From the NCBI GenBank assembly GCA_026625185.1, contig CP113000.1:120001-152000 (forward strand): 32,000 nt of DNA, given 5' to 3'. Position numbers and translations under genes: made by a program. The notes beneath the pieces were generated by a model, which was not told where the DNA came from, searched no databases, and was given only the letters and a program-made list of their open reading frames with translations. The DNA comes from Thermodesulfobacteriota bacterium (GTDB taxonomy: Bacteria > Desulfobacterota > WTBG01 > JAGOGO01). This document shows, in pieces, positions 11,821 to 30,890 of the stretch. Positions within the stretch are counted from its first letter, which is position 1. Every line of letters starts with the position of its first letter.

Positions 11821-11829
11821 TAAGGATAT

Positions 11830-15104: not shown

Positions 15105-16451
15105 CTAAAAAGTAACCACCGTCTGGAAATAAACCCAGTCGGCATCATCAGAGCTGCCGGTATCCTTAACATATTCTCCGCAGAAAAAGTGAGCGTACCC
15201 ACCTTCAAGAGTCAAAAAGCTAAGGGGCTTACAGGTCATGACCACGTCCAACTCATCCCCCACATAATCCGACACATCGGCCGAGGTGCCTTTGCGTATC
15301 TTCTTGCCCGAAGCGTTATACCAGGCGTCTTCGGTTTCATCCAGATAAAATCTATGATACTGGAGAGATCCTTTCAGGCGGTCTTTAATAGGCGTAAAAT
15401 CCAGGAAACAAGCAACCTCTTTCACGTTTTGCCAGCGAAAAAAGTCAATAATGCCATAAGGCTCGTGGGTAGATTGAAATAAAGGAATAAAAGTTTCAGA
15501 TTTCCCGTCATGCGGCTTGTCGTCGCCGCTGGCAAAGTTGTATTCAATCTTCGCGACCGGTTGAGCAAAACAGTTTTTAAAGGTGTAATTGATATCCCCG
15601 TGCCAGGCATAGGCCTTAATCGTATCGGTTGCTTTATCACCAAGCTGCCAGGCAAATTCGTAACCATAACCCAAAGCATCATAGCACGGCAGCTTACCTT
15701 CACCCCGTGTTCCCAGGGTGACGCGTTCAGAATCGCCATTCTGTTGGTCCTCACCGGTTACCTCCCGATGTTTATCAATAAGGTTTAAGGCGTACAGATC
15801 AAAAACCGATCCCTTAATTCCTTTAAAGGTGGAGTAAACACCGAAAAAGTGTTCGCCAAACTTACCGTCATTAAAATGTCTATCAAGATATTGAACCACG
15901 TTCCCCCAAAACAGGTCAACATCAAACAAATTTGGGTTATAGGTGAGCTTAAAAGCGTCAAAGGAACGCATCAAATTTGGCCACGCAGAACAATGCACCA
16001 AGCGTTTAGCCCCGTAACTTAATTCTTGCCTTCCAATCTTCAGACTCACGGGAAGGTCATTGGGCTTTGATAATAAAAAATATAATTGGTGGAGATCGAA
16101 ATCGTCTTTCTGTGGTTTGGGGCTCACATCTGAGTCCCACTCCCGACCATCCAATCCCTCAAAAAAAAGCAAAACCTTATCATTGATATTTGCGCCCACG
16201 TTGAACCTGGTGCGGGCATAGACGTATCCGTCCTTGTCATTAACGTCATCGTCAAAATCGAAATCCTTCTTATACTCATAGCGGAGACGATACTCGCCTC
16301 CCCAGGTGATTTTTACATTATCAAATTTAAACTCCTTAATCGTTTTAGGCAAAAGCCCTGCATTTTCAGCGCCGAACGCTGTCCCCCCAAAACTCATTAT
16401 ACAAACAACGAAACAAATTTCTAATGCCCAAAAATAGTTCCGTTTCCTCAT
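15105..16451 (-). CDS. Outer-membrane beta-barrel porin (alginate-export/AlgE-like family candidate)
   Basis: Signal peptide (MRKRNYFWALEICFVVCIMSFGGTAFGAEN), WGGEYRLRYEY-type first strand, alternating beta pattern throughout, C-terminal ...FQTVVTF. Start placed at the second ATG (16451), which has a GGGAGAG SD. The track ORF starts 7 codons earlier at 16472. Confidence 0.8.
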   Translation of the reverse strand: MRKRNYFWALEICFVVCIMSFGGTAFGAENAGLLPKTIKEFKFDNVKITWGGEYRLRYEYKKDFDFDDDVNDKDGYVYARTRFNVGANINDKVLLFFEGLDGREWDSDVSPKPQKDDFDLHQLYFLLSKPNDLPVSLKIGRQELSYGAKRLVHCSAWPNLMRSFDAFKLTYNPNLFDVDLFWGNVVQYLDRHFNDGKFGEHFFGVYSTFKGIKGSVFDLYALNLIDKHREVTGEDQQNGDSERVTLGTRGEGKLPCYDALGYGYEFAWQLGDKATDTIKAYAWHGDINYTFKNCFAQPVAKIEYNFASGDDKPHDGKSETFIPLFQSTHEPYGIIDFFRWQNVKEVACFLDFTPIKDRLKGSLQYHRFYLDETEDAWYNASGKKIRKGTSADVSDYVGDELDVVMTCKPLSFLTLEGGYAHFFCGEYVKDTGSSDDADWVYFQTVVTF

Positions 16452-16514
16452 GTTCTCTCCCTTTTTCGACATTAGTTTTTTCTAAATTAAAATCTAAAAC
16501 CAATTGATTTCGGC

Positions 16515-16544
16515 ATTATATTTCATAGATTTTAAATCTAACAA
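16515..16544 (-). promoter_or_regulatory. Candidate promoter for the porin gene
   Basis: Minus-strand TTGTTA (16544-16539), 18-nt spacer, TATAAT (16520-16515), in an AT-rich 434-nt gap. Confidence 0.35.
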
Positions 16545-16682
16545 ATGATTTTTATCAGTTAATAAGATATTTTTTATCAGGATATTTATTCAGAATAGCC
16601 TATTAAATAAATGGGAATACTTACCGAACCTATTATTTATCCATAATAAAATCCAATATCAGCAAATTACATTTCTTCTATG

Positions 16683-16785
16683 GGTTGATAGCAGTGGGGT
16701 AAAAAACTGGTGACCAAAATCATTTTTTCCTAAACTACCGGATTATCTTCTCTCCTGCCGGCAAGATCAATTAACCAATATATGA
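16683..16785 (-). pseudogene. Decayed fragment homologous to the 3' end of tupA
   Basis: Nucleotide similarity to 16931-17030 (GATAGC.GTGGGG.TAAAAA..TGG.TGACC.AA..TAT.TTTTCC.AAACT.CCGGATTATCTTCT). In the homologous frame it reads EKIIR*FRKK*, with stops and an indel. Confidence 0.6.
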
Positions 16786-16906
16786 TTTTGAATATGACAA
16801 AACCTGGAGAGATTCACGGGACAATAACTCTAATTTTACTTAGCCCAAACTTACCTCCCGGGTAGAGGCAAATTTGGGCTGTTCTGTTCGCTCAACAATT
16901 GGAAAA

Positions 16907-17752
16907 TCAATTATTTTTTCCAACTGCTTCGGGGATAGCGGTGGGGATAAAAAGTGGTTGACCGAACTTATCTTTTCCAAACTCCCGGATTATCTTCTGG
17001 CCTTCGGTTGAGGTCAGCCAGCCAATGTAGGCCATAGCATAAACATATTTAACCTGAGGGAACTTGGCGGGATTAACCGCAATCACACCGTACGGGTTGT
17101 TTAAAACCGGGTCACCTTGGCAGAGAATTTTTAATCCGATTTTTCCTCCATAGGCCAAGTAAGTTCCCCGGTCTGATAAAGCATACGCCTGTTTCTCGTT
17201 CGCCATCGTCAAAACAGGTCCCATGCCTTGGCCGGCTTCCATATACCATTTCCCTTGGGGCTTGATTCCCGCCTTTTCCCAGATCTTTAATTCTTTTTTA
17301 TGAGTTCCCGAATCGTCTCCCCGGGATATAAAAGGCGCGTGGGCAAGTGCGATCTTCTTCAAGGCTTCCTTAGCATCAGTTGTACCTTTGATCTTGGCTG
17401 GATCCTTTTCCGGCCCAATGATAATAAAATCATTGTACATAACGAACCGCCGGTTAACACCCGAGCCATTCGCGACAAACTTATCTTCTGCCTCACGAGC
17501 GTGTACCAGAACCACATCAACATCTCCCCGTGCGCCCAGCTCCAAAGCCTTTCCGGTTCCCACGGAAATCACGTCTACCTTAATATTCATCATCTTTTCA
17601 AAGGGCGGATTAAGTGACTGAAGGATCCCGGTATCCTCAGTGCTGGTAGTGGTGGCTAATCGAAGCCGCAGTTCTTCAGCACGAATAATTCCTGTGGTAC
17701 TAATTACGAAAAGCACCAAAACCATAAAAACTAATCCCCATTTTTTTCCCAT
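16907..17752 (-). CDS. tupA: Tungstate ABC transporter substrate-binding protein TupA (canonical)
   Basis: Signal peptide, TupA signature LATTTSTEDTGIL, VLVHA, SRGDDSGTHKKELKIW. SD AAGGAGG. Confidence 0.85.
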   Translation of the reverse strand: MGKKWGLVFMVLVLFVISTTGIIRAEELRLRLATTTSTEDTGILQSLNPPFEKMMNIKVDVISVGTGKALELGARGDVDVVLVHAREAEDKFVANGSGVNRRFVMYNDFIIIGPEKDPAKIKGTTDAKEALKKIALAHAPFISRGDDSGTHKKELKIWEKAGIKPQGKWYMEAGQGMGPVLTMANEKQAYALSDRGTYLAYGGKIGLKILCQGDPVLNNPYGVIAVNPAKFPQVKYVYAMAYIGWLTSTEGQKIIREFGKDKFGQPLFIPTAIPEAVGKNN

Positions 17753-17853
17753 AGAACCTCCTTGGTTTGATAAAAAGTTTGATATAAACTATCCTCTTTT
17801 ACCATATCACCCTACCTCACGTAAAACACGTGCACAGGTGACTCTAAAATTAT

Positions 17854-18684
17854 CTACTCCCCAAAACATTGGGAAGCTGAAAAGTACAAGGGCTCACCAA
17901 ACTCTTCCCTTCCAAAGGTAGCAATGATCTTTTGCCCTTGTGCACCCCTCAAAAATTCAACAAATTTTTTTGCCGGCTCATAGTTCGCTTGAGGATACAT
18001 TGTCGGGTTAGTTGTGAGTGCATGGTATCGATTGATAAGCATCGAGTCACCTTCGAAAAGGACCGCAAGGGTTAAGGCGTGGTTTTCCTTGCGCGCCACA
18101 ATATAGGTTGACCGATCCACCATAAAATAGCCGTTTTCATTCGCTGCCTTCTGAAGCGAAGCCATCATAAAATCTTTTGAGGTTCGATACCAGCTACCGG
18201 CGGGTTTTATTCCCGTTTTTTCCCAGATACCCAGTTCCTTTTTGTGAGTGCCGGAGTTATCTCCGCGGGTAATGAAGACTGCCTCTTTCTCAGCGATCTT
18301 CTTATAGGCACAGAGGACATCCTTACACTCCTTGATTGCCGCTGGATCTTCCTTGGGCCCCAGAACAACAAAATCATTGCCGCCAATATACGTCCGGTTA
18401 AGCGCCCAGCCTTCTTCTACGCCCTTTGCCTCTTCAGCCGGAGCATGCACCATAATGACATCAACCGTTCCGCTCTTAAGCATCTGTAACGACTCGCCTG
18501 AACCCGCCTTGGTCACGTTCAGTTCACAAGGAATCTCCTTTTTAAACTCGGCAAAAAGGGCATCCACCAACCCTAACTCATAGGGCGAACCAGTAGCCAA
18601 ACGTAAGGTGGTTGCCAAAAGAGAAGAAGGCACTACTAAAACCATCGGTAAAACAAAAAGTAAAAATATTCGGACCAATCTCAT
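17854..18684 (-). CDS. TupA-family periplasmic binding protein paralog lacking the TTTS motif
   Basis: Collinear with TupA1 (IMVHAP, TRGDNSGTHKKELGIWEK, GIKP.G.WY). The N-terminal anion-binding motif is LATGSPYELGLVDAL instead of ATTTSTEDTGIL. Signal peptide and SD GAGGAG present. Confidence 0.8.
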   Translation of the reverse strand: MRLVRIFLLFVLPMVLVVPSSLLATTLRLATGSPYELGLVDALFAEFKKEIPCELNVTKAGSGESLQMLKSGTVDVIMVHAPAEEAKGVEEGWALNRTYIGGNDFVVLGPKEDPAAIKECKDVLCAYKKIAEKEAVFITRGDNSGTHKKELGIWEKTGIKPAGSWYRTSKDFMMASLQKAANENGYFMVDRSTYIVARKENHALTLAVLFEGDSMLINRYHALTTNPTMYPQANYEPAKKFVEFLRGAQGQKIIATFGREEFGEPLYFSASQCFGE

Positions 18685-18727
18685 CGTAGTCTCCTCAATC
18701 TATAGTTGAACTCATCGTCATAAGTTT

Positions 18728-19459
18728 TTATTTAACGTATTTGTCTTTATACTCTTTCCAGGAAAAGTCGCTGACCGGTGTAACGGTGAAGACTTCCTTT
18801 TCCGGGGCCGTAAGAATCCGGACCGTCACGCACCGGGACATTGCCTCATACTGAGCATTGGCTTCCGGGTCGGTATCTTTTTTTGCTCTTAACTCTTGCA
18901 TCTCCTTGGGGAATTGAAATGTTGTGGTAAGTTTAATCGCTTTGCCGGTGCTCATGCCGGCAAAAATATAGCAGGAATCACCGATGGTTTTGTCAAACGC
19001 CAAATTGCCGTTAAACGCCCCTTCTGACCCTTTACCGTAGCGAGCGCCGGTCAGGTAACTGATCGCATCCGCAGGACACGCCCGCGGAGTGCCGCTCACC
19101 ACAAATTGATCACCCCGCAGAGGAATTTCTCCCGGATAGAGCTGTGCTAATGCAATCTGAGTAGCGCGGTAACCGAGCGCTATTCCCGGGCAGACGTGAC
19201 CATGAAATTTTTCCAGATCCCCAAAGGTAAGGGTGATATTTTTGATAGTGGCGCACTGAGGCTGCGCGCCTTCTTTGCCCTTATCAAATTTATGTTGTGG
19301 CTTTTCTTGCCCCGGTAGCTTCACGGTAATGGTGGGGATTCCTTCCCACGTGCCACCGCCACCCGCAAGTGCTTTTGTCACCCATGGCAGGACGCAGAAG
19401 GATAGTAAGGCGATAAAAGTAATGGTAATGCCCAAGCAAACTTTTCTGTAATGTTTCAT
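18728..19459 (-). CDS. Exported or membrane-anchored FmdE-domain protein
   Basis: FHGHVCPGIALGYR is the hallmark of the FmdE family (formylmethanofuran dehydrogenase subunit E-like). N-terminal hydrophobic signal/anchor MKHYRKVCLGITITFIALLSFCVLPWVTKALAGGGG. SD AAGGAGG. Confidence 0.75.
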   Translation of the reverse strand: MKHYRKVCLGITITFIALLSFCVLPWVTKALAGGGGTWEGIPTITVKLPGQEKPQHKFDKGKEGAQPQCATIKNITLTFGDLEKFHGHVCPGIALGYRATQIALAQLYPGEIPLRGDQFVVSGTPRACPADAISYLTGARYGKGSEGAFNGNLAFDKTIGDSCYIFAGMSTGKAIKLTTTFQFPKEMQELRAKKDTDPEANAQYEAMSRCVTVRILTAPEKEVFTVTPVSDFSWKEYKDKYVK

Positions 19460-19541
19460 ACTGTGTCCTCCTTGTTATAAAAATTTTTTATATGCGTCAA
19501 AACGATGTGCCCATATGGGCAAGGAAAAGCTTTTGCTAAGC

Positions 19542-20303
19542 TCACTCAAGTCGGTAGATTATCGGCACGCGCACTTCGGCCCTAACCGGCGGCTTGGGGA
19601 AGGGTGCTACTGCCTCTACCGTTTTAACCACATTATCATCCAGCACGTCAAACCCTGAACTCTTGGCGATCTTTATAGTGGTAGCGTTTCCATTTTCCAA
19701 AATTATGAACTCTATGATCACTTTCCCTTGCCAACCCATTCGCTGCGCCCTTGCTGGGTAGGTAATATTTTCTTGGATGATTTTTTTGATATAAGCAAAA
19801 TGCTCACTCAGATACTTTTTTCTAAGTGAATCGGCCGAAATCCCTCCCGTACCATTACCGGCCCCCCCCACCAAACCTCCCCCTCCTCCAAGGCCGGTGC
19901 CGCAAGCAGACTGGTCTCCGGTACCGGGAAGTGTTTCCGTCAGCGGTTGAGTCTTCGGAACCTCGGCTGAAGCTATCGGTACCGGACCTTGCTCCTCAAC
20001 GGGGGTTACAATTTTAGGCTCCGAACATTCATCTACCTTCTTTTCCAGTTGCCTAATCTTTTGCACTATTTTTGGGTTTTCTATTGGTTTTGGTTTATCC
20101 GGTTCCGGCATTTTGGGGGCGAGCAAAACTTTTTCATCTTTCGGAGGCCCGGGAGAATTAATGACCGATTCCAGAATGCTTAAATCAATAATCACCGGTT
20201 TAGTATTCATCAAGGCGCTGGTCGTTCCGATAACCCCGGCCAAAACAATAACCACGGTATGGATAATTAAAGAAACTAAAAACCCGCACGCCTGGCGCTT
20301 CAT
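19542..20303 (-). CDS. tonB: Energy transducer TonB
   Basis: N-terminal TM anchor, Pro/Lys-rich spacer (PKMPEPDKPKPIENPK), Gly-rich linker. C-terminal TonB domain: AQRMGWQGKVIIEFIILENG...SSGFDVLD...PFPKPP. Confidence 0.85.
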   Translation of the reverse strand: MKRQACGFLVSLIIHTVVIVLAGVIGTTSALMNTKPVIIDLSILESVINSPGPPKDEKVLLAPKMPEPDKPKPIENPKIVQKIRQLEKKVDECSEPKIVTPVEEQGPVPIASAEVPKTQPLTETLPGTGDQSACGTGLGGGGGLVGGAGNGTGGISADSLRKKYLSEHFAYIKKIIQENITYPARAQRMGWQGKVIIEFIILENGNATTIKIAKSSGFDVLDDNVVKTVEAVAPFPKPPVRAEVRVPIIYRLE

Positions 20304-20680
20304 CGCTTAATCTCGGTTTGAAGGCTTACCTTGGTAAATCCTAAAGTTTTTACTAAATCAAGCACATCCACAAATACCTGGAGCGCAATTTCCCGATCCG
20401 CCTTGATAAGAACAGGATTGTTTTTATCCAACTTCTGCATTGAGTCTTGGAGGCTTTCTATGGTCATGGGCCGGGAATTGAAATAGATCAGCCCGTTTTT
20501 ATCTATCTCAACGGTCTGAATCTTCAGGGTCATTTCCTGCTTATGCGCTGCCCGGGGAAGGTCTATTGGAATAACGCCTGTGGCAATAAAGGTGGAGGTG
20601 GTAAGCACAATCGTTAAAAGCACCAGCATCACATCAACCAACGGGATTACGTTGATATAATCAAATTCCTTTTCTTCCAT
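20300..20680 (-). CDS. exbD: Biopolymer transport protein ExbD/TolR
   Basis: 126 aa, [20 protein letters not shown] segment plus periplasmic domain. 4-nt overlap with tonB. Confidence 0.85.
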
Positions 20681-21095
20681 GCCTTATCTCCCATTTCATC
20701 ATGATCACCTTCACCCGCCTCAACAGCACGTTATAAAGAACCACCGACGGTATGGCCACCAGTAACCCCACAGCCGTCGCCTTTAAGGCCAGAGCCAGGC
20801 CAATCATGATTTTATTGGTATCCATAAAGCCTTCTTTGCCCATGGTGTAAAAGGTCAACATGATGCCCAGGACGGTTCCCAACAACCCGATATACGGAGC
20901 ATTGCTTCCCACGGTGGCGATAATATGAAGTTTCGCGGTGAGTTTAAGTTCCAGGGTCTTTAAATCAGAAAAATCTCTTACCTTGATGTGCCGGTACACC
21001 AGAAACCGCTCAATGGCGATACCCACCGATAACACACTCATAAAAACTAAAACTCCGATTATTCCGTAATCAACGATTGCTTTAAGCCAGTCCAT
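20661..21095 (-). CDS. exbB: MotA/TolQ/ExbB proton-channel protein (short form)
   Basis: 144 aa, three TM segments, [19 protein letters not shown] motif. 20-nt overlap with exbD. Confidence 0.85.
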
Positions 21096-21154
21096 TGATT
21101 TTTTTGTGCTCCTTTAAGTATGTCCTTGCGCGTTACCAGGGAGGAGTTCTTTTT

Positions 21155-22549
21155 TTATCTATCGTGACTCCTCTGCTTTAATTTTGCCAGGCGACTTATA
21201 ACAAGGTATATAATCCCACCCAGGGCAATGGTTCCTAAACCCCAACCGGATGTTAGTGGTTTATCCTTTAGAGAATAAAAGATGATCCAGAGGTTACCCA
21301 CAATAAATATGATCGGCGTCAATGGGTATCCCCAGGTCTTGTAAGTCGAGTGCCGACGATGATTTCGTCTCCTGAGGATAATCAGGCCGCAGACCGTGAG
21401 CACCGCAAAAAGGGATAAGGTGAATCCGATATAAATAAGAAGTTTATCAAATGAAGCAGTTACGGCCATGACAATAGCGAGGAACCCCTGCAAAACAATA
21501 GCATGAGCAGGAGTATGATGTTTTTTTCTGAGCTTTGCTAACGTCTTAATAAAAACTCCATCCCGCGCCATGGCGTAATATACTCTGGGACCTGCCAAAA
21601 TCATGGCGCTGGTTACCGAGAGCAGACCGATCGCGATTGCTCCAGCAACAAAATAGCTCGCCTTCTCACCAAAGAGCGTTACCGCGGCCTTTGCTCCTAC
21701 CTCTAATACCCCGCTCATCTCCGGCACGCTGAGCGCATAGAGGTAGGTTAGGTTTAAAAGGAAATAAAGAATCATTACCAAAAAAGTCCCGGTTAAAAGC
21801 GAAAACGGAATGTTGCGGGCCGAGTTTTTAATTTCGCTTCCCAAATAAGCAGCCGCATTCCAGCCGCTGTAAGCAAAAGAGATAAAAATAAGCGAGACGG
21901 CAAAGGAGCCCGAAAAAACCGAAGCGGTTTGCGAAGTATCGAACAGGCGCGGCATCGAGCCTTTTCCCAGAAAGAACCCTCCGGCCACAAAGCTCACAAT
22001 CAACAGAAGCTTGAAGGTAGTCAACACATTTTGCACCCGGCTTCCGAACCAAAGACTGTGGGCATGGATCAGGGAAAAAATAATGACGATCACTGAGGCA
22101 AGCATGGTGACGGGCGTGACAATCAGGATTGAACTGTTGCAAAGCGAGGCGTTCATGTCCATAGGCAAGAGGTTGGGGAACGCGCGAAAAAAATAGGTGG
22201 AAAAAGCGATAGTAGCCGCGGCAATGGGAGCGGAAAATCCAACGATCAATGATATCCAACCGGAAAGAAAGGCCGTCAATTTTCCGAAGCTTTCCCGCAG
22301 ATAGACGTATTCTCCTCCGGCGAGGGGAAACATTGCTCCCAGCTCTCCATAGCAGAGAGCGCCGGAAAGAGCGAAAATGCCGCCGATAATCCAGCACAAG
22401 AGCATGGCGCCGGGACTTCCGAGTTCTTGAATAATAAATCCCGAAGTCGTAAAAATCCCGGTGCCGATCATGTTGGCCACCACCAGAATCGTGGCCGAGA
22501 AAAAACCGATCTCGCGCTTTAACCCATTGCTGACATCGTTATGGTTCAT
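21155..22549 (-). CDS. APC-superfamily (amino acid/polyamine/organocation) permease
   Basis: 464 aa, ~12 TM segments, N-terminal FSATILVVANMIGTGIFTTSG motif typical of APC transporters. Substrate not inferable. Confidence 0.8.
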   Translation of the reverse strand: MNHNDVSNGLKREIGFFSATILVVANMIGTGIFTTSGFIIQELGSPGAMLLCWIIGGIFALSGALCYGELGAMFPLAGGEYVYLRESFGKLTAFLSGWISLIVGFSAPIAAATIAFSTYFFRAFPNLLPMDMNASLCNSSILIVTPVTMLASVIVIIFSLIHAHSLWFGSRVQNVLTTFKLLLIVSFVAGGFFLGKGSMPRLFDTSQTASVFSGSFAVSLIFISFAYSGWNAAAYLGSEIKNSARNIPFSLLTGTFLVMILYFLLNLTYLYALSVPEMSGVLEVGAKAAVTLFGEKASYFVAGAIAIGLLSVTSAMILAGPRVYYAMARDGVFIKTLAKLRKKHHTPAHAIVLQGFLAIVMAVTASFDKLLIYIGFTLSLFAVLTVCGLIILRRRNHRRHSTYKTWGYPLTPIIFIVGNLWIIFYSLKDKPLTSGWGLGTIALGGIIYLVISRLAKLKQRSHDR

Positions 22550-22564
22550 GTTGCCTGATACTTT

Positions 22565-24325: not shown

Positions 24326-24330
24326 AGTTA

Positions 24331-25086
24331 TTAGTCCTTTTTATTATTTGTGTTAAGTTGAAAGAAATACCAAAGCATCAAGACCGACATGAACGCTCCG
24401 CCCAATAAAATCAATCGGGTGCCCGGGTCCTTTTTCATGATGATTCGCAAGGGAAGTTGCTCCTTGCTTTTCTGGTCAACATCTAAATGCAAACTCCAGC
24501 CTTGAAACCAACACGGGTGCAAAAAGCTGATCTCTTTTGGATAGGTCTGAGAATCGGTCTTGAGATCTAAGGCGACCGCGCACTGGCGAAGTGGATTCTT
24601 TAAAAGGGAATTTTTCCAGAAAGTCGGTCGCACCTCTTTTACTTCCATGGTTCCGAGTTCAACCGAAATAATATCGCCGGCTTTAATCGGAATCACCTTC
24701 TGGGCGCCGGTAAACACGCTCAAGGCGTGGCCGGATAATGCCATGAGGAAAAAAATATGCATGAGCGAAGGAGAAAGCTTTAAGAAAAATTGACCAAAAC
24801 CAGACCCCCGTCTTTTGGGCCACAGGCCGGCCAGCCGGTCCAGGGTGCAGGCGCCGGTGTTAATGCCTAAGAAGATGAGAAGGAAAAAGAACGAGAAAAT
24901 CCACCAGCTTTTTCCGTCACCAAAAACTTTGAACCATTCCTGAAAGAGCATTTGGTTCAAAGGACGAAAGATGCCGGGACAATACTTTATATAATAAGCC
25001 CCGATGGTTAGATTAAGCGCAATGAGAAATAAAAGATAAAGGCTCAGTTTTACACTGGCTAAAAACCGCCACAGCGCTTTAACCAT
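24331..25086 (-). CDS. Short ResB/CcsB-like membrane protein
   Basis: N-terminus LWRFLASVKLSLYLLFLIALNLTIG and GINTGACTLDRL resemble the ResB N-terminal region. Four TM segments with a ~100-aa periplasmic loop. 8-nt overlap with the upstream CcsA-like gene; SD GGAGGG. Much shorter (251 aa) than typical ResB. Confidence 0.6.
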   Translation of the reverse strand: MVKALWRFLASVKLSLYLLFLIALNLTIGAYYIKYCPGIFRPLNQMLFQEWFKVFGDGKSWWIFSFFFLLIFLGINTGACTLDRLAGLWPKRRGSGFGQFFLKLSPSLMHIFFLMALSGHALSVFTGAQKVIPIKAGDIISVELGTMEVKEVRPTFWKNSLLKNPLRQCAVALDLKTDSQTYPKEISFLHPCWFQGWSLHLDVDQKSKEQLPLRIIMKKDPGTRLILLGGAFMSVLMLWYFFQLNTNNKKD

Positions 25087-25840
25087 TTTTCCCTCCGATC
25101 ATCATTACCAGCTCCGATAATTGGTATTGAAAGGTAAACACGAGAACCAACACCATCCCGGCAATCGCCACCCCGGCTTTTTTTCGCAAATCCCATTTGG
25201 CGACAAAGCTCAAGTGGATGTAGGCGACATAGTAGCACCAGATCGCCGCTGATCCCAAATGCCGATCCGCCCAGTGAAAGGGACTTCCCCAGCCCAGATA
25301 AGCCCAGATGGCACCAAAAACCTGAGAGAGGCTAAAAAGCACGAACCCCCAGATTACAAGATCATGAAAAATCGGAACCTCGATTTTTTTACGGACATAA
25401 AAAAACGCAAGCCAGGCCCCCATAATAAAACAGGCATGAGCCAGCACTTCACAAGCAAAAAACAGGGGGGAGAAGAAAGTCTGATTTTTGGCAAACGGAG
25501 GAATGACTCCTTTCGGGTACACCAGGGTGATGATAGAAAAAAAGAAAATGGGCATGATAATATGGGAAAATAATTTTAGGTCATTTTTAAAGAACCGCAC
25601 TATCAAGCCGATAAAGCCAAGTGACCAGGGAAGAAAGGAGATTTCATTAAACATGGGGTTTGCAAAAAAAAAGCCCAGGTACCAGCCGCGGGTTATTTGA
25701 CTCACCGTATGAAAGACAAACCCGAAAACAAAAAACACCTCGGCCACCCGTTCCTTTTTTAGAAGACCAGAAAAAACACTAACGAGATACCCGCCAAAAG
25801 CAAGATAAAAGGTGATTAAAGAAAGCTCAGCAATTGACAT
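25079..25840 (-). CDS. CcsA/CcmC-family (cytochrome c assembly / heme-handling) membrane protein with a divergent Trp-rich motif
   Basis: GAIWAYLGWGSPFHWADRHLGSAAIWCYYVAYIHL aligns with the CcsA consensus WA...WG.YW.WDPKE....W..Y...LH, but WSWDPKE is replaced by FHWADRH. 8 TM segments. SD AGGGAGG. Confidence 0.7.
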   Translation of the reverse strand: MSIAELSLITFYLAFGGYLVSVFSGLLKKERVAEVFFVFGFVFHTVSQITRGWYLGFFFANPMFNEISFLPWSLGFIGLIVRFFKNDLKLFSHIIMPIFFFSIITLVYPKGVIPPFAKNQTFFSPLFFACEVLAHACFIMGAWLAFFYVRKKIEVPIFHDLVIWGFVLFSLSQVFGAIWAYLGWGSPFHWADRHLGSAAIWCYYVAYIHLSFVAKWDLRKKAGVAIAGMVLVLVFTFQYQLSELVMMIGGKNG

Positions 25841-25956
25841 GAACCCTCCCTTGTCCCAATCAGGATTTTAGATGAAATCATCCCTCACTAAAACAACTAC
25901 AGTTTAGCAATCTTTGTTTGGAAAGAGCCCTATCCTACGCAGTATTTTTTCAGGAG

Positions 25957-26048
25957 GCACCCCCTGGTGCTGTGATTGCTCTCGTCCATGCCGATATCTA
26001 CCCGTTGGACAAGAGCCGACCTATCGCATTCAAAGCACCAGGGGGCAT
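25957..26048 (-). promoter_or_regulatory. Structured intra-operon leader upstream of the CcsA-like gene
   Basis: Perfect 12-bp long-range helix (25960-25971 CCCCCTGGTGCT with 26034-26045 AGCACCAGGGGG) enclosing 62 nt. On the minus-strand RNA the 3' arm can instead fold locally (GCACC-AGGG-GGUGC) and is followed by CCUCC, complementary to the gene's SD. Confidence 0.35.
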
Positions 26049-26117
26049 AGGTAATAGAGGGGGAGAAAATTACTATTCATTTCTTTGACAAAGTCAGTAC
26101 CGCCGCCATTTTTCGAT

Positions 26118-27872
26118 TTAATTAAGGCAGGGGCCGACATAAATCAGTCCCAACCATTTTTCGCTTTCTTTTTCATTTGCTTTTAATACCTCCTGGAGCG
26201 TAGACCTGACTATCTTTTCCTTTTCCGTGTAACCGGCATTATAAACCAGACTTATCGGCGTGGTGCCGGCATAGTATTTCTGCAAAAACGGCACCAGGGT
26301 GGGCAATTCCTTCAGACCCATAAAAATAACCAGCGTTTCACCCTGGTCGGCAATCGCCTTAACCAACGGCTCGTTGCTTTTTAATCCCCGGGGCGCTGTA
26401 ATTACCAGGGATCCGTTGCAGGTCGGATCTCGTTTAAGAAGCGCATTGGAAACGTTAAAAGCGCTGATGCCGGGAACAATCTCGATTTGATCTTCGCTAA
26501 TATAGTCTTTTAAAAAGCGGCCGCTTCCAAAAACTCCGGGATCGCCATACTCCAGATAAGCAACGGTCTTCCCTTCGTTCAAAGCGGCAATAACTTTTTG
26601 AACTTCCTTCGCACGCTGTTCTTTGAGAAGTTTTTCCTTTTCCTCTTGCGTGAGGTTTGGGTTGGGCTTGTGAATAATCTGTTCCAATGAATGGATCGGA
26701 TTAAAGAGCACCGGCTTGTCCCCGATATAACCGGCAAGGCTGTTTTTCAGCTCATCGGAACACACAAAAGCATCCGCCTTGGATAGACAGGAAAGCGCTT
26801 CGAGAGTAATCAGTTTTGTTTCCGAACACCCGATACTGATGATGTAAACCCTGGGCTCTTTTTTCAGAGTGATTACCTCTATCTTATCAACTGACTTCAC
26901 AGTCCGGTCCGCTGAAAGATCATTGGGCAGAACGAGCATGAACTTTCCGGTTTTTTTCAAGGGCTGATTATCCACGGTATCCGCGAGCATAATCTCTGCG
27001 CCCGCGCGCGAAAGGAAGAGCTCACCGTAGGATACCAGCGACCGGTATCCATCAGGAGCAGAAGCGATAATAACGGAATTTAAATCCGGCTTGATTCCGG
27101 CTTTCTCGAGGAGAACGCTCAGCGAAACCCCCTTATACTTATTAAATCCGTGAAAACCTTTGCCTTCGCCGACCTGTTTGGCAAATAACGCGGTCTGAGG
27201 ATAGGAAGAGATTTTTTTAAGTTCTGATGACTTTCCTTTGCCTGAGATAACCGTTACTTTTGGCGAAAAAATACTTTCTCCCTTTTTTCCCTGAATCGGC
27301 AGGTGGAGGTCCACCACCTCAATGTTGGTAATCTCCTCAATACACCGGTCGGTGTAAAAATCATTAGCCACCACCAAGGTGGGAAGGCCAACGTTTCGTT
27401 TTAACTGATCAACCATGTTCGGAGCGATTTCCTGAGCAAAAGCCGGATCACCTAACTTTTTAGGCATGATCGGAGTAGCTTCAATGCCGACGATGATATC
27501 CCCCGGGTTCCGGTAGAATACCTCGCCCCAGGAAAGCACCACCTGCTCGCCTTTCTTGTTTCGAACCACTATCGCCAGGTCAACCAGCTTGGAAAATGCC
27601 GACGCCTCTTTTCTGACTCCCGCAAGATCAAGCAGGGCTTGGAGTGAAGGCCCGTGAAAATAAAACACTCCGTGAAAACTTTTGTCTTTGGACACCTCAT
27701 TGAGCCGCACACAAGCGCTGTCAAACTTTTTAAGGTCTTCCATATTCATATACAGCGGCTGTTTCACCTCGCCCGTGATGCTGATCACGGATTGCGCATC
27801 CGCCCATGCCTGAACAGTGAAAAAGCAGCCTACGGCAATCAAAAAAACAATGGAAATTATTTTTTTAAACAT
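26118..27872 (-). CDS. Secreted fusion protein B (paralog of 22565-24325)
   Basis: Same architecture as protein A and collinear with it throughout. Signal peptide MFKKIISIVFLIAVGCFFTVQAWADA. Methylase-like domain with YIISIGCSE, LEYGDPGVFG, VPGISAFNVSNALL, ETLVIFMGL, GLIYVGP. Start placed at the ATG (27872) after the TTG listed in the ORF track; SD AAGGGA. Confidence 0.8.
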   Translation of the reverse strand: MFKKIISIVFLIAVGCFFTVQAWADAQSVISITGEVKQPLYMNMEDLKKFDSACVRLNEVSKDKSFHGVFYFHGPSLQALLDLAGVRKEASAFSKLVDLAIVVRNKKGEQVVLSWGEVFYRNPGDIIVGIEATPIMPKKLGDPAFAQEIAPNMVDQLKRNVGLPTLVVANDFYTDRCIEEITNIEVVDLHLPIQGKKGESIFSPKVTVISGKGKSSELKKISSYPQTALFAKQVGEGKGFHGFNKYKGVSLSVLLEKAGIKPDLNSVIIASAPDGYRSLVSYGELFLSRAGAEIMLADTVDNQPLKKTGKFMLVLPNDLSADRTVKSVDKIEVITLKKEPRVYIISIGCSETKLITLEALSCLSKADAFVCSDELKNSLAGYIGDKPVLFNPIHSLEQIIHKPNPNLTQEEKEKLLKEQRAKEVQKVIAALNEGKTVAYLEYGDPGVFGSGRFLKDYISEDQIEIVPGISAFNVSNALLKRDPTCNGSLVITAPRGLKSNEPLVKAIADQGETLVIFMGLKELPTLVPFLQKYYAGTTPISLVYNAGYTEKEKIVRSTLQEVLKANEKESEKWLGLIYVGPCLN

Positions 27873-27965
27873 CAAGTTTTCCCTTTCTTCTATCCCTTAC
27901 CATTATCCCCTTTACCTCTCTTTTTGGAAAAGAGGGGGGGCTGGGGGATCTTAAATCTCTATACC

Positions 27966-28017
27966 ACTAACAACTAACAATTATCAACTAACAATGAAAC
28001 TAACACCAACACTAACC
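27966..28017. repeat. Five copies of heptamer ACTAACA (minus-strand UGUUAGU) directly after the TBDR2 stop codon
   Basis: Copies start at 27966, 27973, 27987, 27999 and 28011 (the last is ACTAACC), giving spacings of 7, 14, 12 and 12 nt. Confidence 0.8.
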
Positions 28018-30135
28018 TTAGTATTTCGCCGTCAACCCGAACCAGACGGTTCTTCCCATTGCCGGGAAACCATACTCAGGCTCGTAGTCCCGGTCGAGCA
28101 TGTTGTTCATCGCCATGTAAGCTTCAAAATACTTCAGGAAGTTCTGCGAAATCCGGCAGTCAAACGTCATCTGCGAGTCGCTTTTGATCGTAGGATCTTT
28201 CGGATACGTTGGCGTAGGGAGCCGGGAGTAGACTTGGGCCACATAAATAGCGTTAAAATCAAGCCGGGTTCCTATTCTCGGCACAGTATACCGAAGCCCA
28301 ACATCAAATTTATGGAGCGGAGTATTGAGAACCTTATCCGTTACCCGGCCTTCGCTGTGATCTTTGGCTCGATTGTACATGTAATCAAAGCTTAGCACCA
28401 GGTTCTTTACCCAGGGCGGATAAAATTCGGTATTGAGTTCAAAACCAGCCATTCTAATTTTCCCGAAATTCAAATAGTTCCCACCTTGATCCGGAGGAAG
28501 GTCGCGGGTAATCCAGTCTGATATGCGGTGATAAAAATAGGCAAGCTCTAACCAGGCGAGATTACCAAAAGCATGATTTACCCCAAAGGTAGTGTTGACG
28601 CTTTGCTCTGTTTTTAAATCGGGATTCCCCCCCGAGGTCGAATAGAGTTCCTGCAAGGTAGGAAAGCGGGTTTTTTTAGCAACTGAGGTAAAAAGCTTGG
28701 TATCTTTATCAATCTGATAGGTAAGGCCCCCCATGGGATTGAAGGAATGGGAAATTGGCGCTGTTTTGTTATCCCTTTGGGCTTGCAAATCCCCGTATTC
28801 AACTCCAGGCGGCAACACTGGATCATCTTTTGAGTTCCAAGTATCATTATAATTTGACCCTTTAATATCGAACCAGTCGTAGCTCACCCCGGCAACCAGG
28901 GCAAGGTTTTTAATGAGGGCAAACTCATTTTCCAAGCCTAAAGAACCGGTGTAGGTATAGGATTTCGAGAAGGGCAGGTATTCATCATTTTTTTCTTTAT
29001 GGATGTCCCTGGTTAAATGATAGGAAAACCGAAGGATGTCCCAGGAAACCGGCTGGTAATCCGCAAAGAATTTTCCTCCCCAGCTTTCATCATTGTACAA
29101 GCTGTCAGCAATGTTATTTTTAAAGTCATACCAGTCATAGGATTCATATATATCGTCGTGTTTGTGATAAAAAAGTTTGCCCCGTAAGGTCAATTGATCG
29201 AAAACTTTTTGCTTCCCGCTTAAATCAAGAGCCCAGTCATCATATTTTGGCCAGCGATTAAACGGAGTGAACGCCGGTCGTGTAAGGAACATCCGTGAAG
29301 CTTCCCGTATGCTGGGAGGCACCCCCTTTTCACGGTCAATGTAATAAAAATTTGCGTAATATTCGGAATCAGGGTTAAATTCGACACCAACTTTGGCCCA
29401 GATCGCGTGTTTTTGGGAGTCCGAATTATTGCGGTATCCACCATTTTCCATTTCATAAGTACCAGTTTTTCCTTTAATTGTCCCTTGAACCGGCTTAAAA
29501 TCATCCGAGAGCCGCCATCCTAATGTCTCCTCATGGGTGTAGTTTAACCAGTAGCTGAAAATCCCTTTTTTCCACCCGGTAGAAAAGGATTCCCTATCAC
29601 TACCGTGTTCCCCCATCTCAAAGGTGGCTGAAGCTGCCATTTTTGTAGTGGCTTTTTTGGTAACGATGTTGATAACCCCGCCCATGGCGCCCGCGCCATA
29701 AATGACCGAAGGTGCCCCCTTGGTAATTATGATTTTGGCGATGTTGTCCGTCGGTATGGAGGAAAGGTCGAGTTTATGGTAATTCTGCTCGTAATAGGGA
29801 ACACCGTCAATGAGCACCAGGAGGCGTTCCTGACCAAAACCCTGGATCGAAATGTAGGGTTCGTTTTTCTTGCCGGTGGAAACCCGCACTCCCGGAGCAT
29901 GGGCCAGAGCTTCAGCCACATTTGTGCTGTGAGTGGCTTTAATCTGCTCTGCCGTTACTTCGTTAGTGATAGCCATTTCGGTAACAGCCGCCGGCTTTTC
30001 ACCGGATACAACTATTTCACCCAGGTCATAGGCGGTAAAATCAGCTTCTTCGTCTTTTTCTGCCGACCATGCCGGGAGGGAAAAAGCAAACAACAAACTA
30101 AAACTAATTAATAATAATAAAACTTTTACCCTCAT
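28018..30135 (-). CDS. TonB-dependent outer-membrane receptor (TBDR2)
   Basis: Signal peptide MRVKVLLLLISFSLLFAFSLPAWSA, TonB box DLGEIVVSG, plug motifs (VAEALAHAPGVRV, LVLIDGVPY, GGVINIVTKKA). 705-aa barrel ending ...FGLTAKY. SD AAGGAGG. Confidence 0.9.
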   Translation of the reverse strand: MRVKVLLLLISFSLLFAFSLPAWSAEKDEEADFTAYDLGEIVVSGEKPAAVTEMAITNEVTAEQIKATHSTNVAEALAHAPGVRVSTGKKNEPYISIQGFGQERLLVLIDGVPYYEQNYHKLDLSSIPTDNIAKIIITKGAPSVIYGAGAMGGVINIVTKKATTKMAASATFEMGEHGSDRESFSTGWKKGIFSYWLNYTHEETLGWRLSDDFKPVQGTIKGKTGTYEMENGGYRNNSDSQKHAIWAKVGVEFNPDSEYYANFYYIDREKGVPPSIREASRMFLTRPAFTPFNRWPKYDDWALDLSGKQKVFDQLTLRGKLFYHKHDDIYESYDWYDFKNNIADSLYNDESWGGKFFADYQPVSWDILRFSYHLTRDIHKEKNDEYLPFSKSYTYTGSLGLENEFALIKNLALVAGVSYDWFDIKGSNYNDTWNSKDDPVLPPGVEYGDLQAQRDNKTAPISHSFNPMGGLTYQIDKDTKLFTSVAKKTRFPTLQELYSTSGGNPDLKTEQSVNTTFGVNHAFGNLAWLELAYFYHRISDWITRDLPPDQGGNYLNFGKIRMAGFELNTEFYPPWVKNLVLSFDYMYNRAKDHSEGRVTDKVLNTPLHKFDVGLRYTVPRIGTRLDFNAIYVAQVYSRLPTPTYPKDPTIKSDSQMTFDCRISQNFLKYFEAYMAMNNMLDRDYEPEYGFPAMGRTVWFGLTAKY

Positions 30136-30163
30136 GATACTCCTCCTTTTTTTAATATCGGGG

Positions 30164-30268
30164 CTATCTCAGTTCTAATTCCGAGAGTCCCAGAGCCACT
30201 TGATTTTTGAGTAAATCTATTCGACTGATTATCTTATCAGCGAGTTTAAGAAGTTCCATATCATTCAT
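30164..30268 (-). CDS. Candidate 34-aa small ORF (MNDMELLKLADKIISRIDLLKNQVALGLSELELR)
   Basis: Hand-translated; below the ORF-track size cutoff. ATG preceded by AAGGAGG with a 7-nt spacer. Fills the gap between the 109-aa ORF and TBDR2. Predicted amphipathic helix. Confidence 0.4.
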   Translation of the reverse strand: MNDMELLKLADKIISRIDLLKNQVALGLSELELR

Positions 30269-30272
30269 ACTC

Positions 30273-30602
30273 TTACCTCCTTTCACACTTTAGAAGTTCA
30301 TCCATCTTTAAAGTCCTCTCCACATACTTCCCTCCATCAGAATTTCTCTTATATAACAACAAGTTCAACTTTCCATGTAAGAAAACAAACATACTACAGG
30401 CTATATGTCCCATAGTACTTAATCCTGTAGGAAGTATATAATCATCTGGAGAGGAATCCTTTAGTTTCTCAGCGAACAGTCTATAAATCTGAGTTGTTCC
30501 ATAACGGGATATTACTCCCTCCGAGAGATATACAAGTTCTCCAAATCTCTCAGCATCTTCGTTATCGTGTCCTCCACGGTTGACAATAAAAACCTTTTTC
30601 AT
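30273..30602 (-). CDS. Hypothetical 109-aa protein, first gene of the TBDR2 array
   Basis: ORF with SD AAAGGA. Visibly more A+T-rich than its neighbours. No family recognised. Confidence 0.55.
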   Translation of the reverse strand: MKKVFIVNRGGHDNEDAERFGELVYLSEGVISRYGTTQIYRLFAEKLKDSSPDDYILPTGLSTMGHIACSMFVFLHGKLNLLLYKRNSDGGKYVERTLKMDELLKCERR

Positions 30603-30712
30603 GATTAGAATCCTTTCGGTATAGTTGGGATCGAATCTACTGGTTGAAGAGGGTCTATTATCTCAACATTATTTTTTAACTCTTTTTTCTTTTTTAAAAA
30701 AAATAATATTTC

Positions 30713-30745
30713 AGCTATAATATAGCTAAAATATAGCCTTGTCAA
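30713..30745 (-). promoter_or_regulatory. Candidate sigma70 promoter of the long minus-strand array, with a palindromic operator over the -10
   Basis: Minus-strand TTGACA (30745-30740), 17-nt spacer, TATTAT (30722-30717). A perfect 7-1-7 palindrome AGCTATA-A-TATAGCT (30713-30727) covers the -10. Confidence 0.45.
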
Positions 30746-30777
30746 GAAAATAATTACAAATAATTACAAATAATATT
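30746..30777. repeat. Three tandem 10-bp-phased AAATAATTAC-type repeats abutting the -35, including the exact 12-mer ACAAATAATTAC (30756-30767)
   Basis: GAAAATAATTAC / AAATAATTAC / AAATAATATT. The 12-mer is identical to 9648-9659 and the reverse complement of 9558-9569. Confidence 0.6.
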
Positions 30778-30890
30778 ATCAAACAACTAAAATTACCTTT
30801 TTGGATAGACATTATGGGCAATTTATTACTAATGAGTTCCTCTAAAAATGTTTTTCCTGCGAAAGCAGTAATCCAGAACTAATCGAAATT

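Follow-up and report, generated by a model that had tools for sequence, protein, structure and literature searches.

An operon of an uncultured sulfate-reducer-type bacterium suggests a TonB-dependent way to scavenge tungsten or molybdenum

The DNA analyzed in this work (the window) is a stretch of 32,000 nucleotides (nt) from an uncultured Thermodesulfobacteriota bacterium (GenBank assembly GCA_026625185.1, contig CP113000.1, positions 120,001 to 152,000 of the forward strand), whose closest relatives are metagenome-assembled genomes (MAGs) labelled Thermodesulfobacteriota or "delta proteobacterium". On its minus strand, between positions 30602 and 15105, lie 15 consecutive genes that include those for the TonB-dependent outer-membrane transporter TBDR2, for ExbB, ExbD and TonB, for two proteins of the tungstate-binding TupA type, and for two exported proteins of a family to which the name MoTPm was given in this analysis (Table 1). 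This operon of a sulfate-reducer-type bacterium suggests a so far undescribed way in which anaerobes scavenge tungsten (W) or molybdenum (Mo).

Related loci (designated L with a number) were collected from two anchors, a MoTPm profile run on genome contigs, from which the best 80 loci were taken, and a TBDR2 profile run on metagenome contigs, which gave a further 80. Open reading frame (ORF) calling, comparison with the proteins of the window and removal of duplicates left 149 non-redundant loci, from at least five phyla (Thermodesulfobacteriota, Nitrospirota, Spirochaetota, Acidobacteriota and Candidatus Abyssobacteria); no cultured carrier was present among the best 80 genome loci. Large loci were defined as those of at least 12 kb (44 MoTPm-anchored and 32 TBDR2-anchored, 76 in all), and TupA, TupB, a TaoR-like regulator or the molybdenum storage protein MoSto was counted as a W/Mo marker.

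The co-directional array had been described in an original prediction made from the sequence alone, and it is borne out both by the ORF listing and by the genes called on its parent metagenome contig. The overlaps given there are exact (8 nt between the CcsA-like and ResB-like genes, 20 nt between exbB and exbD, 4 nt between exbD and tonB), and its statement that gaps are mostly short holds for 9 of the 14 junctions, which overlap or measure less than 60 nt; the remaining five measure 82, 101, 142, 277 and 434 nt. An ORF of 46 amino acids (aa) with a TTG start that had been proposed at 30605-30745 is unlikely to be a gene because it overlaps the promoter, and the count of 15 is completed instead by a 34-aa ORF. 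The predicted consensus-like promoter at about 30.74 kb was found again as a sigma-70-like site. Promoter-like matches in the region are no more numerous than in shuffled sequences, so that the match alone is weak evidence; the position and sequence of the site are kept in the relatives L083, L084 and L088, about 100 nt before TBDR2, and this conservation is the stronger argument. At the other end, near 15.03 kb, the expected terminator is present as a hairpin with a T-run, which the terminator scanner missed because its loop is 14 nt long.

Two of the longer junctions were looked at individually. The 277-nt gap between MoTPm_A and the CcsA-like gene had been called structured, and it does fold better than shuffles and is conserved in relatives, with 87% column identity to L003 and L004 and a DNA conservation equal to or above that of the flanking genes. 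It forms a long stable hairpin with no T-tract and matched no Rfam family in a gathering-threshold scan of the whole window or in a permissive scan of the spacer; a site of processing, an attenuator and an internal regulatory RNA are possible interpretations. The 434-nt gap before the porin gene is AT-rich and has promoter-like sites of its own, and the AlgE-type porin is probably its own transcription unit. The first two genes of the array, the Pam3_gp32-like gene and the 34-aa ORF, form a cassette of about 485 nt (30164-30640) that sits exactly between the promoter and the ribosome-binding site of TBDR2; L083, L084 and L088 have no such cassette, and their promoter runs directly to that ribosome-binding site. 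By this comparison the two genes are a recent insertion outside the conserved system, one that would be transcribed from the operon promoter and is possibly a toxin-antitoxin-like or phage-derived hitchhiker.

Table 1. Features of the array and of its surroundings, in the order in which the array is read, with positions in the window.
Feature	Position	Strand	Evidence
TaoR/TupR-type regulator, 3' part (303 aa on parent contig, start beyond window)	31131-32000	-	HTH_17 + PF12727; PBP_like E 2.7e-69
Candidate operator, tandem direct repeat GTAATTATTT x2 (10-nt phase), abutting -35 box	30746-30775	-	perfect repeat at 30748-30767
Sigma-70-like promoter, TTGACA-17-TATTAT	30745-30717	-	11/12 match, top of promoter scan
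Pam3_gp32-like gene, 109 aa	30602-30273	-	Pfam PF23992 E 3e-9
34-aa ORF	30268-30164	-	parent-contig gene call
TBDR2, TonB-dependent outer-membrane transporter, 705 aa	30135-28018	-	Pfam Plug E 4.9e-25, TonB_dep_Rec_b-barrel E 4.8e-31
MoTPm_A, 585 aa	27875-26118	-	Sec signal + two SUOX/PruR-like domains + class III (CbiF-like) methyltransferase domain
Conserved structured 277-nt spacer between MoTPm_A and CcsA-like	25841-26117	-	minimum free energy -92.9 kcal/mol, z = -3.5 vs shuffles
CcsA-like haem-handling membrane protein, 253 aa	25840-25079	-	Pfam Cytochrom_C_asm 41.5 bits vs cut-off 29.9
Truncated ResB-like membrane protein, 251 aa	25086-24331	-	window copy: no Pfam hit; identity at family level
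MoTPm_B, 585 aa, paralogue of MoTPm_A	24325-22565	-	47% identity; same architecture
APC-superfamily (LAT-like) permease	22549-21155	-	Pfam AA_permease_2 E 1.8e-57; best NCBIfam = L-type amino acid transporter family
ExbB, short exbB2 type	21095-20661	-	Pfam; TIGR02805 170.6 bits vs cut-off 135.35
ExbD	20680-20300	-	Pfam
TonB	20303-19542	-	Pfam; C-terminal domain passes TIGR01352
FmdE-domain protein, exported or membrane-anchored	19459-18728	-	Pfam FmdE E 6.6e-24; PDB 2glz E 1.1e-6
TupA2, divergent TupA paralogue	18684-17854	-	39% identical to TupA1
TupA1, canonical periplasmic tungstate-binding protein	17752-16907	-	PDB 3lr1 (G. sulfurreducens TupA) E 4.5e-92
AlgE-family outer-membrane porin	16472-15105	-	Pfam Alginate_exp E 1.2e-69
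Intrinsic-terminator-like hairpin + T-run, CCCCGCTC ... GAGCGGGG + TTTTATTTGT	~15046-15006	-	read directly from sequence
tupB, MoSto-beta-like, padR, tupC	9774-12967	+	Pfam; NCBIfam for TupB and TupC
MoSto-beta-like gene + padR between tupB and tupC	10641-12216	+	PDB 2ogx_B E 3.7e-62, 2ogx_A E 1.1e-42
Operator-motif copies, divergent TBDR1/tupB promoter region	9556-9571 and 9646-9661		12-mer, <=3 mismatches over 16 nt
TBDR1 + ECF-type transporter + TiaS-TCKD-like protein, second TonB-dependent module	4119-9513	-	Pfam

TBDR2 has the N-terminal plug and 22-strand barrel domains (Pfam) of a TonB-dependent transporter (TBDT) and scored below every curated NCBIfam subfamily cut-off (haem, 161.9 against 316.85; siderophore, 151.6 against 223.5; vitamin B12, 116.7 against 599.7). 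When compared with solved TBDTs, the plug region alone matched, the nearest plugs being those of Cir and BtuB. Its orthologues, which are 45-87% identical and syntenic with MoTPm, share an invariant F-Y-H-x-H-x-D (TBDR2 residues 322-328, window positions of about 29154-29174) and several invariant basic residues; these are a candidate site for a metal or oxyanion complex. The energiser is complete, with ExbB, ExbD and TonB all encoded together (21095-19542). Among the binding proteins, TupA1 has the anion-binding motif TTTS (within ATTTSTEDTG) and is predicted to bind tungstate, and TupA2 is without it, having ATGSPYE where the homologue 3muq has ATTTSTY; neither reached the strict cut-off of 400 set for the NCBIfam TupA equivalog (224.7 bits for TupA1 and 156.7 bits for TupA2). 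The tupB and tupC genes of the window have no tupA beside them, and their products likewise scored under the NCBIfam strict equivalog cut-offs. The sequence of the FmdE-domain protein shows a hydrophobic stretch at its N-terminus.

MoTPm_A and MoTPm_B, which the original prediction had called novel periplasmic proteins, have more than 600 homologues (at 90% clustering), named in their sources merely "precorrin-4 methylase" or "SAM-dependent methyltransferase". Both domains of the N-terminal half are weak matches to Pfam Oxidored_molyb, and the C-terminal TP_methylase domains scored 130.3 and 128.1 bits against a Pfam cut-off of 27.8. AlphaFold2 models (predicted local distance difference test score of 84 for the whole protein and 89 for the N-terminal half) were searched with Foldseek. 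The C-terminal domain matched precorrin-4 methylases (CbiF/CobM) and also CysG and SUMT (4e16, E 8.6e-14, template modelling (TM) score 0.75 on target), and the N-terminal half matched SoxC, SorA, chicken sulfite oxidase and YedY (E 2e-7 to 1e-5), and also PruR (7kom, a neopterin complex, with a TM score of 0.71 on target and a root-mean-square deviation of 3.3 A; 7kp2, 7rkb and 7kou). Across 68 homologues no cysteine in residues 1-340 is invariant or at least 90% conserved, and a Mo-coordinating cysteine was judged to be missing because there is no conserved cysteine at all in that part. Alignment of domain 2 to SUOX and PruR proteins, aimed at the Cys/Trp position and at the PW motif and pterin-contacting Asn/Tyr/Trp residues of PruR, gave marginal partial alignments only; a DGY motif is invariant in this domain.

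The N-termini of the two window copies (MMFKKIISIV... and MRKKIMVLFS...) are of Sec type with no twin arginine, where Tat export would be needed for a cofactor inserted in the cytoplasm. A CxxCH haem-attachment motif occurs in the first-domain loop of most MoTPm homologues, which implies Sec export of the family, and both window copies are without it. A second indication that the methylase domains are truly exported comes from stand-alone class III methyltransferase paralogues of about 310 aa that carry their own signal peptides and stand directly after tonB in many related loci (L025:16941-17867 and L036:8946-9899, and also in L026, L039, L044 and L078); in the window it is the FmdE gene that occupies this position. 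The class III motifs GxGCx(D/E) (also written GxGxG(D/E)), YGDP and PG(I/L)SAFN are invariant or nearly so in MoTPm, which suggests a working S-adenosylmethionine (SAM) site. All cut-offs for equivalogs of tetrapyrrole-pathway steps were missed (for CobM, for example, 64-70 bits against 259.65). No DcpA-like gene was found near MoTPm in any locus, no DcpA-like or sensor partner is conserved, and none of the loci has a PruR-type operon. In four Nitrospirota (Thermodesulfovibrionales) loci (L063, L064, L067 and L068) a short MoTPm of about 340-390 aa has two SUOX-like domains and CxxCH and no methylase, and these operons have a divergent LysR-type regulator in place of the HTH_17 and PF12727 type. 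An in-frame fusion of MoTPm to a signal-less TupA-like part (L042:19-2562, 847 aa) was considered as Rosetta-stone evidence and rejected; it was treated as a singleton, a recent fusion or an assembly error, because relatives at 83-88% identity are unfused and the genes of L052 are separate.

Between the two MoTPm genes lie those of the CcsA-like and ResB-like proteins. The former has a WWD-like motif (W..GWG....W) in which W179, G183, W184 and W190 are invariant, as is H209; H194 is kept by 90% or more of the 28 members, and a 22-sequence alignment also shows H44 and H158 to be conserved. The protein fell short of the CcsB equivalog (TIGR03144, 48.2 bits against a cut-off of 187.6). Seventeen of the 28 ResB-like family members matched Pfam ResB weakly (best E 1.1e-5), H110 and H120 are invariant, and the ResB-like gene adjoins the CcsA-like gene in every case across the loci. 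Family profiles of both proteins found no matches among PDB sequences. Full-length MoTPm has CxxCH without the Ccs-like pair in 25 cases, both in 14, the pair without CxxCH in 21 and neither in none (p = 3e-7). A role of the pair as dedicated maturase of the MoTPm haem was therefore rejected as its sole role, because the pair persists where CxxCH has been lost and an attachment factor should vanish with the motif. The pair seems able to replace the covalent haem of MoTPm, which speaks for a function in redox chemistry or haem supply that both have in common, somewhat as MsrQ feeds MsrP. The APC permease is tied to the methylase domain: its gene lies directly downstream of 31 of 60 methylase-bearing full-length MoTPm genes and of none of 18 methylase-less ones (p = 2.3e-5).

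Synteny across the large loci was scored by gene family (MoTPm-anchored loci given first, TBDR2-anchored loci second). TBDR2 is present in 31/44 and, as the anchor, 32/32, MoTPm in 42/44 (as the anchor) and 19/32, the APC permease in 21/44 and 8/32, the CcsA-like gene in 14/44 and 10/32, and ExbB in 19/44 and 14/32. TupA was found in 15/44 and 6/32, a TaoR-like regulator in 10/44 and 4/32, and any W/Mo marker in 22/44 and 11/32; an importer of the FecCD/Peripla_BP_2 type was found in 4/44 and 9/32 and DUF364 in 7/44 and 7/32. TBDR2, MoTPm, the APC permease, the CcsA/ResB-like pair and ExbB-ExbD-TonB are the conserved core. TupA2, FmdE, the AlgE-type porin and the Pam3_gp32-like insertion were classed as additions particular to this lineage. 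The FmdE domain, which had been put forward as a key link to W/Mo, occurs in 3/76 large loci only and was rejected as a core component, and the AlgE-type porin occurs in 0/76. Anion-type porins close the operon, of the AlgE type here and of the OprO/P type in the same position in L009, L025 and L078.

Several gene orders recur. One runs CcsA-like, ResB-like, MoTPm, APC, TBDR2, ExbB, ExbD, TonB, exported stand-alone methylase, TupA, TupA and OprO/P porin; in another, TaoR-like, TupA, TupB and TupC diverge from TBDR2, MoTPm, APC, ExbB, ExbD and TonB. Nitrospirota loci such as L063 have TBDR2, the methylase-less short MoTPm, TonB, TupA, TupA, TupB and TupC, and in L052 the genes for MoTPm, TupA, TupB and TupC are consecutive. 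L125 (1400-13000) has two divergent copies of TBDR2-ExbBD, one of them with MoTPm and a Ccs-like pair. The possibility raised beforehand as fatal to the proposal, that TBDR2 orthologues would elsewhere never sit with tup genes, fails, since the profiled orthologues do adjoin tup genes, as well as W/Mo-type regulators.

The genes around the array had been predicted to include a W/Mo-type regulator, MoSto and tupBC, and the regulator (HTH_17 with a PBP_like domain), a MoSto-beta-like protein and tupB and tupC are all in place (Table 1). The regulator combines an N-terminal excisionase-type helix-turn-helix with a C-terminal PF12727 domain resembling periplasmic-binding proteins (PBPs), the latter matching the PBP domain of the MoeA-fusion PRK14498. 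A passage in PMC10102598, citing Rajeev 2019, links the HTH_17 and PF12727 family to tungstate/molybdate regulation. In 14/76 large loci a regulator of the TaoR/TupR type is encoded adjacently or divergently. At the TBDR2 promoter the motif GTAATTATTTGT is present twice in tandem and is conserved in L083, L084 and L088; further copies lie upstream of TBDR1 (9556-9571) and before tupB, where the copy at 9646-9661 overlaps a TTGACA. Counted at no more than 1 mismatch, the motif has 13 occurrences within the 56.7 kb of sequence that precede TBDR2 orthologues in the 149 loci, against 20 in the remaining 1.8 Mb, an enrichment of 20-fold (binomial p = 6e-12, which is optimistic because related loci are not independent) and of 5.6-fold against other intergenic DNA. 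Two or three copies, spaced in 10-nt phase, are usual and lie 110-190 nt ahead of the start codon, and the motif is found even where orthologues are only about 50% identical in protein sequence. A search that allowed up to 3 mismatches gave no Fur box. Nor was there a credible riboswitch or other Rfam match, whether the whole window was scanned at gathering threshold or the 277-nt gap and the promoter region were scanned permissively.

On this evidence we put at about an even chance the reading that the array is the main operon of a W/Mo acquisition island, controlled by the adjacent TaoR/TupR-type regulator, TonB-dependent, and feeding TupA-TupBC. The domain identities, the export signals, the synteny across phyla and the shared, conserved operator were observed; we infer W/Mo as the cargo, the form in which it arrives, every biochemical step (methylation and redox chemistry included), the substrate of the permease and the operator-binding regulator. 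The pathway would run as follows. The regulator would act through the tandem GTAATTATTTGT operator at the promoter, and TBDR2, driven by its own ExbB-ExbD-TonB, would bring a scarce W/Mo species across the outer membrane, most likely one bound to or part of an organic carrier and not the free oxyanion. In the periplasm the Sec-exported MoTPm_A and MoTPm_B would capture and chemically process this cargo, with redox or haem support from the truncated CcsA/ResB-type pair in place of the c-type haem of most MoTPm homologues. The LAT-like APC permease may serve the methyltransferase domain by shuttling SAM and S-adenosylhomocysteine (SAH) or the reaction product. Freed tungstate or molybdate would then be bound by TupA1, handed to TupBC (encoded 5 kb away behind the same operator) and stored by MoSto. 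Metallophore- or pterin-bound metal and thiometallates from sulfidic habitats are candidate cargos; the FecCD-type importers and DUF364 of some loci fit an organic chelate, and the pure TBDR-TupABC operons fit release of an oxyanion in the periplasm. The earlier suggestion of a complexed organic cargo gains some support, from the PruR-like and tetrapyrrole-methylase-fold domains and from FecCD/Peripla_BP_2 in place of TupBC in some loci. A more far-reaching version, which we consider speculative and unlikely, would make this the first TonB-dependent W/Mo pathway and the first periplasmic SAM-dependent methyl-transfer system, in which MoTPm, through redox chemistry and methylation, strips W/Mo from an organic (pterin-like or metallophore) or thio-complexed carrier, the LAT-type APC permease exchanges SAM for SAH, a mini-CcsBA serves as haem or electron conduit and the oxyanion passes to TupA-TupBC, as an adaptation of anaerobes to scarce or sulfide-bound W/Mo.

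A number of observations weigh against W/Mo acquisition. The evidence is all comparative or drawn from structural prediction, and the loci come almost all from MAGs, some of them frameshifted (L003, L052). About half of the large loci have no W/Mo marker within 10 kb, and about a quarter of the TBDR2-anchored ones have chelate-type FecCD/Peripla_BP_2 transporters and DUF364 instead, a pattern that would fit iron, haem or corrinoid cargo equally. The domains of MoTPm point to pterin- or tetrapyrrole-like ligands and not to oxyanions. SAM is not known to occur in the periplasm, and for this reason the methylase domain may do no more than bind a ligand. L058, an Acidobacteria locus that falls narrowly beyond the flank criterion, encodes a MoTPm lacking CxxCH and has neither a Ccs-like pair nor TBDR2. 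Because the operator is AT-rich and the loci bearing it include many that are related to one another, the enrichment p-values overstate independence; the pairing of the operator with the adjacent regulator is a proposal.

Four other explanations were weighed, each of which covers part of the anatomy; none covers the TupA/TupBC/TaoR-like/MoSto context together with the shared operator. The best placed, though still unlikely, is salvage of an intact pterin-type cofactor, in which TBDR2 would import molybdopterin (MPT), the Mo or W cofactor (Moco/Wco) or a breakdown product, the PruR-like domains would bind it and the methylase modify it, and TupA would catch the released metal or be merely co-regulated. 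Moco and MPT are extremely labile outside proteins, which weighs against such an import. The matches of the MoTPm N-terminal half to PruR, the neopterin complex 7kom among them, and to the Moco domains of SUOX proteins speak for it, as does the W/Mo-regulated context, yet no genes for pterin or Moco biosynthesis or insertion are conserved across the loci, and the pterin-stacking residues of PruR gave no reliable alignment to MoTPm. PruR itself is, like MoTPm, Sec-exported and without a Mo-binding cysteine, but its pocket is described as too short for Moco (PMC11194511).

Somewhat less probable, and rather unlikely, is a function other than uptake, with MoTPm, the Ccs-like pair and the APC permease forming a periplasmic redox or methylation enzyme (for detoxification, respiration or pterin-type signalling) to which TBDR2 supplies a substrate or cofactor. 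A haem c motif and a haem-handling membrane partner imply electron transfer, PruR offers the precedent of a signalling protein (PMC11194511), and MoTPm occurs without TBDR2 in L040, L058, L060 and L077; the close and conserved linkage to a TBDT that comes with its own ExbBD-TonB, the binding proteins and ABC importers directly downstream and the missing conserved DcpA-like or sensor partner argue the other way.

Uptake or remodelling of a tetrapyrrole (haem or corrinoid) is more doubtful again. Once imported by TBDR2, the tetrapyrrole would be bound or methylated by the CbiF-like domain and carried through the inner membrane by the CcsA/ResB-like pair; the tup genes would be neighbours merely because genes for metal cofactors are often clustered. 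The TP_methylase fold nearest to precorrin-4 methylases, the handling of haem by CcsA-family proteins, the chelate-type ABC importers that adjoin MoTPm in some loci and the likeness of the TBDR2 plug to those of Cir and BtuB all suit this explanation. It is opposed by the lack of a cobalamin riboswitch or other Rfam match in the window and by TBDR2 scores far below the BtuB and haem-receptor cut-offs, and it leaves unexplained both the recurrent adjacency of TupA/TupBC/TaoR-like genes with a shared operator and the methylase-less short MoTPm in pure TBDR-TupABC operons (L063). Least probable of all, and very unlikely, is an ordinary ferric-siderophore system or a mosaic of unrelated same-direction units, for which TBDT, ExbBD-TonB and FecCD-type neighbours typical of iron uptake, the 277- and 434-nt internal gaps with promoter-like sites and the recently inserted first two genes might be cited, against the lack of a Fur box (at up to 3 mismatches), a core gene order kept across phyla, the W/Mo-type regulator with an operator common to tupB, and TBDR2 scores below the siderophore-receptor cut-offs.

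Further features of the window lie outside the array. A single MoSto subunit gene is present (its 2ogx_B match is A. vinelandii MosB), whereas A. vinelandii MoSto is built from two subunit types; the same MoSto and PadR pair (70% identity) adjoins a TBDR2 orthologue in L112. The second TonB-dependent module is headed by TBDR1 (28% identity to TBDR2) and encodes a transporter of the energy-coupling factor (ECF) type, made up of a double ATPase, a T component resembling CbiQ and a putative S component, along with a protein with a TiaS-TCKD/'methanogenesis marker 11'-like domain. It recurs beside TBDR2-ExbBD-TonB in L155/L156 and in L008/L098/L104; the pairing of a TBDT with an ECF importer is unusual. 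The terminator-like hairpin (14980-15046) is a repeated element with a second copy at 13102-13160 whose 21-nt core is identical, and the two copies are direct repeats that bracket a gene of the BrkB/YihY family. The region from the regulator stop to the operator (30840-31130) is nearly identical in relatives whose proteins share just 62-87% identity; it may be a small RNA, a 3' untranslated region or a miniature mobile element, and an insertion/deletion element of about 150 nt inside it (~30840-30990) is present here and in L084 and not in L083 or L088. At the left edge of the island (370-4045, plus strand) are genes for an AAA (MoxR/CobS-like) ATPase, a VWA-domain protein and an MBL-fold hydrolase.

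How tungstate and molybdate pass the outer membrane has been largely unaddressed, as has their supply where sulfide or organic matter binds them, and inner-membrane ABC systems (Mod, Tup, Wtp) are the only ones well described so far. The island provides a concrete and widespread gene set for such work, with a dedicated TBDT, a conserved operator and regulator and an exported family that is apparently unstudied. An active methylase would also pose the question of the route by which SAM gets into the periplasm. The bacteria that carry the system are syntrophs and reducers of sulfate and metals, in which key enzymes (formate dehydrogenases, aldehyde oxidoreductases and benzoyl-CoA reductases) require W/Mo, so that it could be relevant to the limitation of anoxic sediments and digesters by trace metals.

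A full-text literature search found no description of this TonB/Tup/MoTPm system, and it was compared with the nearest known ones. Siderophore systems of the FepA/FhuA type and BtuB-BtuFCD share with the array a plug/barrel TBDT energised by ExbB-ExbD-TonB, periplasmic binding proteins that go with an ABC importer, and a promoter at which a metal-responsive regulator acts. Here, in contrast, the binding protein and ABC importer are of the oxyanion type (TupA/TupBC), TBDR2 fails the curated subfamily cut-offs, and MoTPm, the APC permease and the CcsA/ResB-like pair belong to the conserved core. With respect to TupABC (3lr1 of G. sulfurreducens; TupA of D. alaskensis, PMC4139814), TupA1 is alike, including TTTS, and TupB and TupC homologues are present, but tupA stands apart from tupBC inside the TBDR2 operon and is joined by a second paralogue without TTTS.

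PruR is the periplasmic pterin-binding protein of PruR-DcpA signalling, Sec-exported and with a degenerate SUOX fold that has no Mo-binding cysteine (PMC11194511). MoTPm resembles it in these three respects of fold, export and missing Mo-coordinating cysteine, and differs in its tandem domains, the CxxCH insertion of most homologues, the fused class III methyltransferase, the lack of a DcpA partner and a context of transport and not of cyclic di-GMP signalling. MsrP-MsrQ (YedYZ) likewise combines a periplasmic SUOX-fold protein (YedY was among the Foldseek matches) with a haem membrane partner, MsrQ being a haem-containing membrane protein that supplies electrons to MsrP. MsrP binds Moco through a cysteine and is a Tat substrate, whereas MoTPm has no conserved cysteine and a Sec-type signal, and its membrane partner is CcsA/ResB-like and not MsrQ-like. 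The C-terminal domain of MoTPm shares fold and motifs with CbiF/CobM and CobA/CysG, yet it is exported, fused to SUOX-type domains and outside a cobalamin or sirohaem gene context. System II cytochrome c maturation (CcsBA/ResBC) offers a CcsA-family protein with WWD-like motif and conserved histidines and a ResB-related neighbour; here the ResB-like protein is just ~250 aa long and the CcsA-like one about 253 aa, and both fall below the equivalog models and are kept where CxxCH is lost, the opposite of a dedicated maturation factor.

Azotobacter uses catecholate metallophores for Mo. A further route, in P. aeruginosa, employs a ModA secreted by the type VI secretion system (T6SS) together with IcmP, as cited in PMC11734730. 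Both have in common with the island an active capture of Mo beyond the inner-membrane ABC transporter; here there is no T6SS, secreted ModA or metallophore synthesis gene, and the island has its own TBDT/TonB and a periplasmic enzyme. Judged from its domains, MoTPm appears to be neither a SUOX enzyme (no cysteine, no Tat signal) nor a PruR module (no DcpA, tandem domains with a methylase) nor a pathway methylase (cut-offs failed). The system as a whole would work like TonB-dependent metal-chelate uptake, outside any characterised receptor subfamily and around a periplasmic core that has no described counterpart and possibly carries out an unprecedented step.

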